Shown here: positions 43,621 to 45,768 of the stretch, piece after piece | Position numbering within the stretch: the first letter of the stretch is position 1 | Layout: every line of letters starts with the position of its first letter | Assembly (NCBI GenBank): GCA_900545345.1 | Contig: UQYQ01000001.1 | Span: 34,426-98,425, forward strand | Origin: an uncultured Ruminococcus sp. | GTDB taxonomy: Bacteria > Bacillota > Clostridia > Oscillospirales > Ruminococcaceae | Reading direction: 5' to 3' | DNA: 64,000 bases | The notes under the pieces: model-generated | Told to the model about the DNA's origin: nothing | Seen by the model: the letters and a program-made list of their open reading frames with translations, nothing else | The model's database searches: none | Position numbers and translations under genes: made by a program

Positions 43621-45768
43621 ATGAAAAAAGCAATAAGTATCGCCGTTTGTATGGCGGTGAGTGTTTCGGTTTTTGTACAGAGTTCGGCGTTTGCCGACGA
43701 GCCTGTGTTTTCGGGCGAAAAGGAAAACTACATAGTTCTGACCGAAACCGAAAAAGACGGAAAGAAAATTCAGTCGCAGTTCGACGGTGAAATTCTTCTC
43801 GGTGATGAAGCTTTAAGCTGTGAGCTGACCGAACATCAGGCTGAAAGATTGGAACAGCAGTCTGGTGTAATAGCAGTAAGTGAGGATATTATCCTTGAGG
43901 GCAGCGGAAAGAAGAGCAAAAAGAAATTATCTGCTCCTGCTGAACAATGGAACTTAGAAGCTATTGGTGCAGATAATTCAGAAGCAAAACCAACGGGCGT
44001 AAAAATCGAGGTGCTTGACAGCGGAGTATCCTATACAGATGATATAAATATCATGGGTGAGGTTAATCTTGTTCCCGGTGAGGAGGAAGTCAGCCCGATG
44101 TTTGTTGATGCAAACGGTCACGGAACGGGAATTGCAGGGCTTATCGGTGCTAAGGACAATAAAGACGGAATAAAGGGTGTTTTCCCTGACGTCGAGATTT
44201 ATTCAGTTAAGGCGTTTGACGAGAATTTGAAGTCACCGCTTAGCCGAATAGTAGAGGGCATCTATTGGGGCATTGAGAACGATATGGATATAATCAATAT
44301 GAGCTTCGGGACAACGGTCAATTCGGCGGTTTTGCATCAGGCAATTAAAGACGCCGAATCAGCGGGAATACTTCTGATAGCGGCGGCAGGAAACACCGAA
44401 CATCAGGACATTAATTATCCTGCTGCATATGATGAAGTGATAGCTGTAGGCTCAATAAATGCAGAGGGCAAGCTAGCCGAGCTTACATCAACGGGCACGG
44501 AATTAGAACTTCTGGCACCGGGTGAACAGGTATGTACAACAGGGCTGTTCTATGGTACAATAGGCGTAAGCGGAACAAGCATAGCCACAGCACAGGTAAC
44601 AGGAGCGGCGGCAATGCTGAAAGCAAAGGACAAAACGAAGTCAAACGACTTTATCAGAGGGCTTTTAAAAACCTCATCTAAAGAAGTCGAGGGAACAAAC
44701 GCAGGACTTATCGACTGTGAATATGCTTTAGAGATTTATGACGAGTATTCAAGAAGCTACACCAAAGGCGAAAAAGCAGTTGAAAAGCTTGAAAACAACG
44801 AAGCTGTTCCCGACTATTCAGACCAAGCGGATATTGTTGTTGAGGGGTTGTGGAGTGGATCAAAACACAAAGATATAATAAAAGAATCAATATTTAATCG
44901 AAATCTATCTATAAGTAAAAATAATATAGGTTTTATGGCTCAAACAGCAGTAGCAGCTGATATTGATTTTGGGTCAAAAAGTGGGGATAATAATGTAAGA
45001 AATCTACACGGCAAAAATAATTATGTGGCATCGCTAAAGTTTTTATGGAACTTTGCTTTGAATTTATATAACAAGCAAACGACTGCAAAAGCAAAAGAAA
45101 ATGCTTTAAACAGCATATCTAAAGAATTAAGAGATAAACAAATGACTAAAATGGCTAATAAACTAGCTGAATATATAAATGCCAATACGACTGCAACTCA
45201 ATATGAAAAGAAAAAATTTTTAATAGTTGGGTTTGCTTGCCATTTAATCGGAGATACATATGCACACAGAGGAATTGTTCCTAAAAGTACAGTGTCAAAG
45301 GCAGGAAAAAATAAAACCGGTTCAAAATTTGGAACAAGCCATTTTGCTTCAAATAGTAAAGCATCATACAATAATGCTGATTTAAAGGCTTGTGCCAAAA
45401 ATCCAAATGAAAAGGTAAAAAATCAAAAGAAATATCAATGCTGGCAAGCATTTAGTAAAACTGTTAATCTTGGAGTTATGGAATTTATAGATATAAAATT
45501 TTATATGAAAAGCAATATCAATACGCCTAGTTCAATATATGAAGATAATATTTTATTTTGCAGTTATAGGTATAATGATAGTGTATTGGCTACAGAAGAT
45601 TTTCTTAGTACCTTTTCTAGTGGTTTTGATGAACTTATCTTTTATCCAGTATGCGGTTCTGTCTTAAATCATTATTATGGATATACAAAAGCAACAGGTA
45701 TTAATACATCATATATGTCTAAAAAAAGTTGGGCAAAAATTTCAACAATGGAAACTAATCCAGTATAA
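43621..45768 (+). CDS. Secreted subtilisin-like S8 serine protease fused to a C-terminal PLC/P1-nuclease-like zinc-binding domain
   Basis: 715 aa; signal peptide; S8 triad contexts VLDSGV (Asp), HGTGIAGLIG (His), GTSIATAQVTGAAA (Ser); C-terminal half has LWSGSKHKD, LHGKNNYVASLKFLW and HLIGDTYAHRGIVPK, paralogous to the 23430 gene. Confidence 0.7.
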   Translation: MKKAISIAVCMAVSVSVFVQSSAFADEPVFSGEKENYIVLTETEKDGKKIQSQFDGEILLGDEALSCELTEHQAERLEQQSGVIAVSEDIILEGSGKKSKKKLSAPAEQWNLEAIGADNSEAKPTGVKIEVLDSGVSYTDDINIMGEVNLVPGEEEVSPMFVDANGHGTGIAGLIGAKDNKDGIKGVFPDVEIYSVKAFDENLKSPLSRIVEGIYWGIENDMDIINMSFGTTVNSAVLHQAIKDAESAGILLIAAAGNTEHQDINYPAAYDEVIAVGSINAEGKLAELTSTGTELELLAPGEQVCTTGLFYGTIGVSGTSIATAQVTGAAAMLKAKDKTKSNDFIRGLLKTSSKEVEGTNAGLIDCEYALEIYDEYSRSYTKGEKAVEKLENNEAVPDYSDQADIVVEGLWSGSKHKDIIKESIFNRNLSISKNNIGFMAQTAVAADIDFGSKSGDNNVRNLHGKNNYVASLKFLWNFALNLYNKQTTAKAKENALNSISKELRDKQMTKMANKLAEYINANTTATQYEKKKFLIVGFACHLIGDTYAHRGIVPKSTVSKAGKNKTGSKFGTSHFASNSKASYNNADLKACAKNPNEKVKNQKKYQCWQAFSKTVNLGVMEFIDIKFYMKSNINTPSSIYEDNILFCSYRYNDSVLATEDFLSTFSSGFDELIFYPVCGSVLNHYYGYTKATGINTSYMSKKSWAKISTMETNPV

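Follow-up and report, generated by a model that had tools for sequence, protein, structure and literature searches.

A putative self-activating zymogen joining a subtilisin to a divergent zinc phospholipase C/S1-P1 nuclease-like domain in an uncultured Ruminococcus

A stretch of 64,000 nucleotides from an uncultured Ruminococcus sp. (GenBank assembly GCA_900545345.1, contig UQYQ01000001.1, positions 34,426 to 98,425), hereafter called the window, carries at its positions 43621-45768 the gene for a secreted protein in which an intact subtilisin precedes a C-terminal domain, supported here as belonging, though highly divergent, to the zinc phospholipase C (PLC)/S1-P1 nuclease superfamily. As a whole the protein can be read as a secreted two-enzyme zymogen, with the subtilisin releasing and activating the PLC/P1-like domain; the probability of this reading is put at roughly 0.55. 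Judged from the sequence, its best-supported function would be that of a secreted, protease-gated metallo-phosphodiesterase. The superfamily and protease-activated PLC zymogens are known; the evidence supports as new a divergent, unannotated PLC/P1 clade with recurrent in-cis fusion to a subtilisin. An earlier interpretation made from the DNA letters (the sequence-only reading) had placed the fusion gene at 43621-45768, a standalone paralog at 23430-24458 and a decayed fragment at 47061-47249, where all three open reading frames (ORFs) are indeed found.

Architecture of the fusion protein

The fusion gene and its parts are arranged as follows:

43621..45768, + strand: fusion gene, 715 aa; signal peptide, I9-like propeptide, S8A subtilisin, linker, PLC/P1-like putative zinc domain
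43621..43695, + strand: predicted Sec signal peptide, residues 1-25, ending ...SSAFA/DEP (read from the sequence; a slash marks a predicted or known cleavage site here and below)
43696..43905, + strand: I9-like propeptide, residues 26-95, ending VSEDIILEGS; predicted autocleavage S95/G96
43906..44826, + strand: S8A subtilisin catalytic domain, residues 96-402; triad D133, H167, S320; oxyanion Asn226
44827..44850, + strand: linker end with the predicted cleavage motif A-D-I-V-V-E-G-L, residues 403-410 (subsites P8-P1), abutting Trp411
44851..45765, + strand: PLC/P1-nuclease-like helical domain, residues 411-715; 305 aa

Residues 125-356 match Peptidase_S8 (PF00082, Pfam) with 156.6 bits against a cut-off of 21.8 (E 1e-45), and none of the 65 full-length fused relatives departs from the triad D133/H167/S320, N226 being kept in 64. 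With this score above the cut-off and with triad and oxyanion Asn intact, the module is, by its sequence, an S8A subtilase. The full-length AlphaFold model, computed from 36 fused homologues, has a predicted local distance difference test score (pLDDT) of 86.2 and a predicted template modelling score (pTM) of 0.60; its best PDB match by Foldseek is the unautoprocessed pro-subtilisin E 3whi, propeptide included (360 columns, template modelling score 0.84). The I9 match in Pfam is weak, covering residues 48-92 and profile positions 39-79 of 82 (16.8 versus 21.2 bits), and this sub-cut-off sequence match is outweighed by the alignment with pro-subtilisin E, by which the modelled segment is an I9 propeptide. 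A model helix at residues 2-18 lies in the signal peptide region; the low-confidence stretches are 20-30 (the predicted signal peptide end), 98-106 (the junction of propeptide and catalytic part) and 405-409 (directly before Trp411).

With subtilisin E, BPN' and Savinase the protein shares 33-38% identity over the catalytic part (Foldseek alignment with Bacillus subtilisins), the intact triad, the I9 propeptide and the register of the propeptide end. Unlike true subtilisins, which have either no C-terminal extension or a typical P-domain or anchoring extension, it continues into a 305-residue enzyme-like domain. The isoelectric point (pI) of the protease module is 4.4 and that of the C-terminal domain 9.5, with a family median of 8.4 for the latter. 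Searching the window with tblastn returned a single S8 module and just three copies of the PLC/P1-like domain. A mycosin identity was considered and set aside, all NCBIfam S8 subfamily matches being sub-threshold (mycosin 144.7 versus 278.75 bits), as was a lipoprotein or anchored form, neither a lipobox nor a C-terminal anchor being seen in the sequence.

Fold and superfamily of the C-terminal domain

The model of residues 395-715 is all-helical (pLDDT 83.8, pTM 0.87). Its comparison with known structures lists B. cereus PLC with a score of 8.3 (136 residues, 2.8 Å), Listeria PlcB with 7.9, C. absonum alpha-toxin with 7.7, the S1/P1 nuclease SmNuc1 with 7.4, S1 nuclease with 6.2 and Endonuclease 2 with 5.7. 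The domain has the all-alpha core fold common to PLC and P1 nuclease, and the outcome that the sequence-only reading had named as fatal to its proposal, an unrelated fold lacking a conserved His/Asp cluster, did not occur. In Pfam, fusion residues 443-590 match Zn_dep_PLPC (PF00882) with E 1.2e-4 and 22.5 bits, rising to 24.6 when the domain is scanned by itself. The profile is also hit by 15 of the 16 close relatives and, at E<=0.01, by 40 of the 81 more distant sequences, the best at E 3.6e-8; among the 97 relatives scanned it is the sole recurrent Pfam enzyme family for this domain. DUF6765, a weak match (E about 1e-3) in 7 of the 97 sequences, was dropped as it spans the H-x3-D helix only and adds nothing.

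When 1.84 billion representatives, in clusters at 50% identity, were searched exhaustively with a profile, the domain family came to 338 clusters at E<=1e-3, of which 223 reach E<=1e-10. Word-indexed protein searches were far less sensitive, with 4 and 14 relatives (the 14 being close relatives of the paralog), and looking up the exact fusion protein yielded no public contig. An S8 module is attached in 81 of 166 family sequences. The sources are metagenome-assembled genomes (MAGs) of Acutalibacteraceae, Lachnospiraceae and uncultured Clostridia with 'Lapin' (rabbit) sample names. The relatives are named by NCBI only as 'S8 family serine peptidase', a search of the literature for a subtilase and zinc PLC fusion, for DUF6765 and for Zn_dep_PLPC found nothing relevant, and the window proteins stay below the Pfam cut-off, all of which bears out the earlier suggestion of a divergent, undescribed branch.

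Two observations on individual relatives may be recorded. At the loci of the closest relatives (L010, 7323-9518, and L011, 6638-8833) the fusion gene is called as ORFs of 215 aa and 505 aa, both of which match S8; either the copy carries a frameshift or interruption, or the assembly is in error. In an NCBI MAG, a protein of 688 aa (P0049) has its PLC/P1-like domain (84-353) fused straight to Big_2 and a BspA-type leucine-rich repeat (LRR) of the LRR_5 family, and so ties together two gene types that adjoin in the window.

Candidate metal ligands

The C-terminal half of the fusion protein and the paralog share three motifs, a likeness far beyond chance. These are LWSGSKH in the fusion and LWTGDTH in the paralog, LHGKNNYVASLKFLW and LHGNRNYVATLKFLW, and KKFLIVGFACHLIGDTYAHRGIVPK and RKYLIVGLIMHFLGDVTAHRTIVPK, respectively. 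They had been pointed out in the sequence-only reading, and their residues prove near-invariant in an alignment of 166 sequences, mostly cluster representatives at 50% identity, from which the following counts are taken. W411 is conserved in 140/150, H416 in 148/152, D447 in 154/155, H463 in 156/160, H541 in 161/162, and D545 and H549 each in 162/163 sequences; D642 and R650 follow with 159/160 each, and N467, Y468, G537, R550 and Y640 are further near-invariant positions. Two invariant arginines would suit phosphate binding.

As reference we take the ligands of P1 nuclease (1ak0) to be W1, H6, D45, H60, H116, D120, H126, H149 and D153, and those of B. cereus PLC (1ah7) to be W1, H14, D55, H69, H118, D122, H128, H142 and E146, the residues having been verified against the PDB sequences and the ligand numbering following these structures. 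The candidates W411, H416, D447, H463, H541, D545 and H549 correspond to seven of these nine canonical zinc ligands in identity and order. With hhalign, used as a register check only (family profile against a single PLC or P1 sequence, probabilities 20% and 5%), weak alignments place W411/H416/D447/H541/D545 on W1/H6/D45/H116/D120 of P1 nuclease and H416/H541/D545 on H14/H118/D122 of PLC. Recurrent if weak PF00882 matches and proposed ligands invariant across the family support the claim, made before from the letters, of a PLC/P1-like C-terminal domain.

The helix motif H541-x3-D545-x3-H549 is invariant and deviates from the canonical H-x3-D-x5-H, represented by HYLGDVNQPMH in 1ah7 and HFIGDMTQPLH in 1ak0 (checked against the PDB). 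The second His is indeed 2 residues closer than in B. cereus PLC and P1 nuclease, as had been remarked. The W411-x4-H416 spacing, on the other hand, is that of the S1/P1 nucleases.

The junction before Trp411

In the superfamily model the Trp would have to be the N-terminal residue, and the fusion protein carries it internally, at residue 411 (first estimated as around 410). The residues in front of it are conserved although they are located outside the PLC-like fold: the 81 fused relatives show the consensus [ILV]-V-x-[GA]-[LMS]/W, with V/I at subsite P4 in 74/81, G/A at P2 in 80/81, L/M at P1 in 53/81 and W at P1' in 80/81. In standalone forms the corresponding motif is G-I-S-P-[LMQ]/W. Subtilisin specificity is mainly for hydrophobic P4 and P1 residues, the classical substrate being x-x-Pro-Leu/Phe (AAPF/AAPL). 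The propeptide end of the fusion protein, VSEDIILEGS/GKK, and its linker, QADIVVEGL/W, stand in the same register, because both can be aligned with the propeptide end of subtilisin BPN', VEEDHVAHAY/AQS, whose mature chain begins with AQS. A hydrophobic-x-[G/A]-x pattern is present at both the propeptide and the linker site in 62 fusions, and whether P2 is Gly or Ala at one site is correlated with its identity at the other (Fisher p 0.008, without phylogenetic correction). In the full-length model the linker residues 405-409 have pLDDT values below 50.

A breakpoint in the DNA falls on the same spot. Window positions 43455-44857 and positions 7156-8559 of the L010 locus are 95% identical, and this block ends sharply, with no DNA similarity beyond, two codons past the Trp codon (44851-44853); protein identity to the L010 relative is 97% before the boundary versus 42% after it. 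With DNA identity lost just past its codon, the Trp therefore marks a module boundary, and recombination appears to have swapped the C-terminal domain at the predicted point of cleavage. Circumstantial support from the site, the linker model and this breakpoint makes autoprocessing at Trp411 plausible.

Proposed mechanism

After export, the subtilisin module would remove its own I9-type propeptide at ...I-L-E-G-S95/G96 and then cut the flexible linker at ...V-V-E-G-L410/W411, in cis or between molecules. The cut would release a 305-residue, basic (pI 9.5), all-helical domain, whose new N-terminal Trp might, by analogy to the superfamily, complete a zinc site through its amino group and carbonyl together with H416 and D545. 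A second zinc would be held by D447, H463, H541 and D545, and a third, altered site by H549 and probably D642. Since a free Trp N-terminus would complete the zinc site, the domain may be an active phosphodiesterase only after cleavage. The site G-I-S-P-L/W of the paralog reads as a classic subtilisin site, and the same protease would probably activate the paralog in trans. Candidate substrates are phospholipid head groups, considering the Pfam affinity to PLC, or nucleic acids or nucleotides; the W-x4-H spacing, together with the basic charge, points towards the substrate of a nuclease or some other polyanion.

Comparison with known systems

Among the zinc PLCs, B. cereus PC-PLC (1ah7), Listeria PlcB (8cqm) and the N-domain of clostridial alpha-toxin (1olp), all of PF00882, were compared. 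Like these, the window proteins are secreted, have a Trp behind a pro-segment whose cleavage is predicted here, and possess the H-x3-D helix motif as well as candidates for the earlier Asp and His ligands. Unlike these, they are about 17% identical across the roughly 136 residues that superpose, contain the H-x3-D-x3-H motif without a counterpart of H142/E146, and include about 150 extra residues with an invariant Y-x-D...R motif of their own. The distance from W to H is 5 in the window family and 13 in B. cereus PLC; for alpha-toxin we take it to be 10. Of the S1/P1 nucleases (P1 1ak0, S1 5fb9, SmNuc1 8qjl and plant Endonuclease 2 3w52; PF02265), the domain shares the identical W1-x4-H6 spacing and the order of the candidate ligands, and its basic charge fits a polyanionic substrate; it differs by the absence of the H149/D153 pair, and there is no evidence for nucleoside-binding residues.

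The closest analogy in terms of activation is offered by Listeria PlcB, which is inactive as a proenzyme until the protease Mpl takes off a propeptide of 26 residues, and which loses its activity if a single extra residue precedes W1 (PMC10576769). The window paralog and the fused S8 protease might work in the same way. Unlike Mpl, a thermolysin-like metalloprotease, the window protease is a serine subtilase, and half of the family has its protease in cis, ahead of the enzyme and replacing a short propeptide.

Weighing the alternatives

A number of points weigh against the zymogen reading, and those which concern the nature of the domain may be taken together. The window proteins miss the PF00882 gathering cut-off of 26.8 bits (15.4 bits, E 0.018 for the paralog); because they lie below it and some relatives reach E 3.6e-8, the clade is placed at the edge of this family. 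The S1-P1_nuclease profile PF02265 gave zero matches in the window proteins or the 97 relatives, and Foldseek gave no significant match of the domain to the PDB; PDB sequences searched with phmmer and a 16-sequence profile gave nothing relevant either. About 140 of the 305 domain residues can be superposed on PLC or P1, and a counterpart of the final ligand pair (H142/E146 in PLC, H149/D153 in P1) was not found in the alignment. Invariant D642 is, by sequence, a candidate substitute for this missing His-Asp/Glu pair, and for these two reasons the third metal site may be remodelled; given the missing pair and the shorter H...H spacing, the metal centre may also be binuclear or otherwise different. 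We infer the clustering of the conserved candidate ligands in space, as we do the cleavage before Trp411, the metal content and the activity. If the likeness to PLC and P1 were convergent or spurious, the C-terminal part would be an unrelated helical domain, for instance one with a structural or binding role and another kind of His/Asp metal site, which would agree with the missing Foldseek match, the hhalign probabilities of just 5-20%, the superposition of under half of the domain and the two absent canonical ligands. It is nevertheless very improbable, since weak PF00882 matches recur in 55 independent sequences, and since seven ligands match in order and identity, including W-x4-H and H-x3-D.

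Other points concern the release of the domain. The P1 residue differs between the two sites, being S/C/N at the propeptide and L/M at the linker, no S8 gene lies within 8 kb at the loci with standalone copies, and the P2 covariation may reflect shared ancestry. The first two, and the fact that the activating protease of Listeria is a separate protein, would suit release and activation of the domain by a separate protease, supplied by the host or a different bacterium, or by another mechanism, with the fused subtilisin serving an unrelated purpose such as the degradation of host proteins. This is a rather doubtful alternative: 81 of the 166 family members are physically fused to an intact S8 module, hydrophobic-x-G/A with P2 covariation is found at both sites, and the S8 module is of the true-subtilisin type with the textbook preference for hydrophobic P4 and P1. 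It is also conceivable, if on balance unlikely, that the domain is PLC/P1-like but never released. The protein would then be a permanent two-domain enzyme in which the helical domain either directs the protease towards membranes or polyanions or works as an enzyme whose internal Trp has a side chain of structural use only. Cleavage is a prediction, and the pTM of 0.60 for the full-length model is neutral either way; a basic domain beside an acidic protease could well be a binding module, and PF00882 is a broad family, many members of which have no N-terminal Trp. Against permanent linkage speak the Trp at P1' in 80 of 81 fusions, behind a subtilisin-type P4/P2/P1 pattern outside the fold, the same Trp behind a pro-segment in standalone homologues, the low confidence of the linker in the model, and the loss of activity caused by a single residue before W1 in characterised members.

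Implications

Were the zymogen reading true, an unannotated clade of about 340 clusters (50% identity) from gut Clostridia would join the zinc PLC/S1-P1 nuclease superfamily, and an in-cis subtilisin cut would supply the N-terminal Trp that the superfamily demands, which would provide a simple model of how enzymes of this class are controlled as zymogens. To our knowledge, there is no earlier case of an activating protease built into the same polypeptide as such an enzyme. The family also draws attention to secreted hydrolases of commensal Clostridia that current annotation lists simply as 'S8 family serine peptidase'. A more far-reaching and distinctly tentative picture is that of self-activating, modular secreted effectors of gut Clostridia, in which a conserved subtilisin 'driver' is linked, right at the site of its own cut, to interchangeable, fast-diverging zinc phosphodiesterase cassettes with N-terminal Trp, swapped by recombination at the Trp codon; the same protease would mature the standalone cassettes, the third metal site would be remodelled, and the substrate would be neither a classical phospholipid nor nucleic acid.

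Standalone paralog and remnant

The two further copies of the domain in the window are:

23430..24458, + strand: standalone paralog, 342 aa (348 aa from an alternative ATG at 23412)
47061..47249, + strand: 3' remnant of a third, paralog-type copy; 62-aa ORF, recognisable at 47082-47228 (last ~50 codons)

The C-terminal 315 residues of the fusion protein align with the paralog at 29% identity (241 columns, E 4e-17), in agreement with the proposed relationship. Reading its sequence, one finds a predicted signal peptide at about 1-27 and a pro-segment, 28-63, which ends in G-I-S-P-L and is followed by Trp64, so that about 36 residues separate signal peptide and Trp, near the 30 or so first estimated. 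Standalone members (P0005-P0018) share a near-identical signal peptide (MKLRKILCLSLAAAVTFT...) and the pro-segment motif ENQSFGxxILxK (window 23430-23510), and their mature domains diverge to 33% identity, which suggests conserved ends around diversifying cores.

The ORF at 47061-47249 is 57% identical to paralog residues 287-335 (E 1e-16) and 40% identical to fusion residues 633-674 (E 1e-4). It is a 3' remnant because DNA similarity begins at the KYEDN codons and nothing recognisable lies upstream; the YED motif is retained and all other conserved residues are gone. The description as a decayed fragment is apt, the match being restricted to the last ~50 residues of the paralog. The remnant still has an ATG and a 62-codon reading frame, lies straight upstream of an LRR gene, mirroring the order at 23430-25451, and looks like a truncated duplicate of the two-gene unit of paralog and LRR gene.

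Genomic context

Neighbouring genes of the BspA type are found at both loci:

21867..23168, + strand: BspA-type LRR (LRR_5) secreted protein, flanking the paralog; Pfam E 2.5e-48
24480..25451, + strand: BspA-type LRR protein, directly 3' of the paralog; LRR_5 E 7.9e-14
45780..46949, + strand: BspA-type LRR protein, directly 3' of the fusion gene; LRR_5 E 3.8e-35
47273..49527, + strand: two more BspA-type LRR genes (47273-48106 and 48271-49527) after the remnant; Pfam LRR_5

Both loci are small islands of low G+C content (0.25-0.31) amid housekeeping genes, the first between pyrophosphatase and sugar-kinase genes and the second between AspRS and permease genes, a setting that would fit DNA that was acquired or evolves fast. 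Window positions 46001-48000, with LRR genes and the remnant, have a G+C content of 0.25 compared with about 0.36 window-wide. At each island the domain gene is paired with BspA-type LRR_5 genes, and the same pairing occurs at the P0001 and P0002 loci; LRR neighbours are absent at the locus of P0036, a more distant fused relative. The link between domain and LRR genes is real and seems confined to close relatives of the window proteins, and a role of the module in colonisation or virulence is speculative.

All five BspA-type LRR_5 genes share a 3' tail of ~50 codons (...FYVKNKKVAKSLKKQLKGSGVRNAKILIGKKVVYKNVK), located at 23015-23167, 25228-25454, 46802-46948, 47947-48105 and 49370-49526. These tails are 77-94% identical in DNA to the tail of the LRR gene at the L010 locus, whereas the gene bodies differ; the shared tail could be a sorting or anchoring signal, or a recombination anchor.

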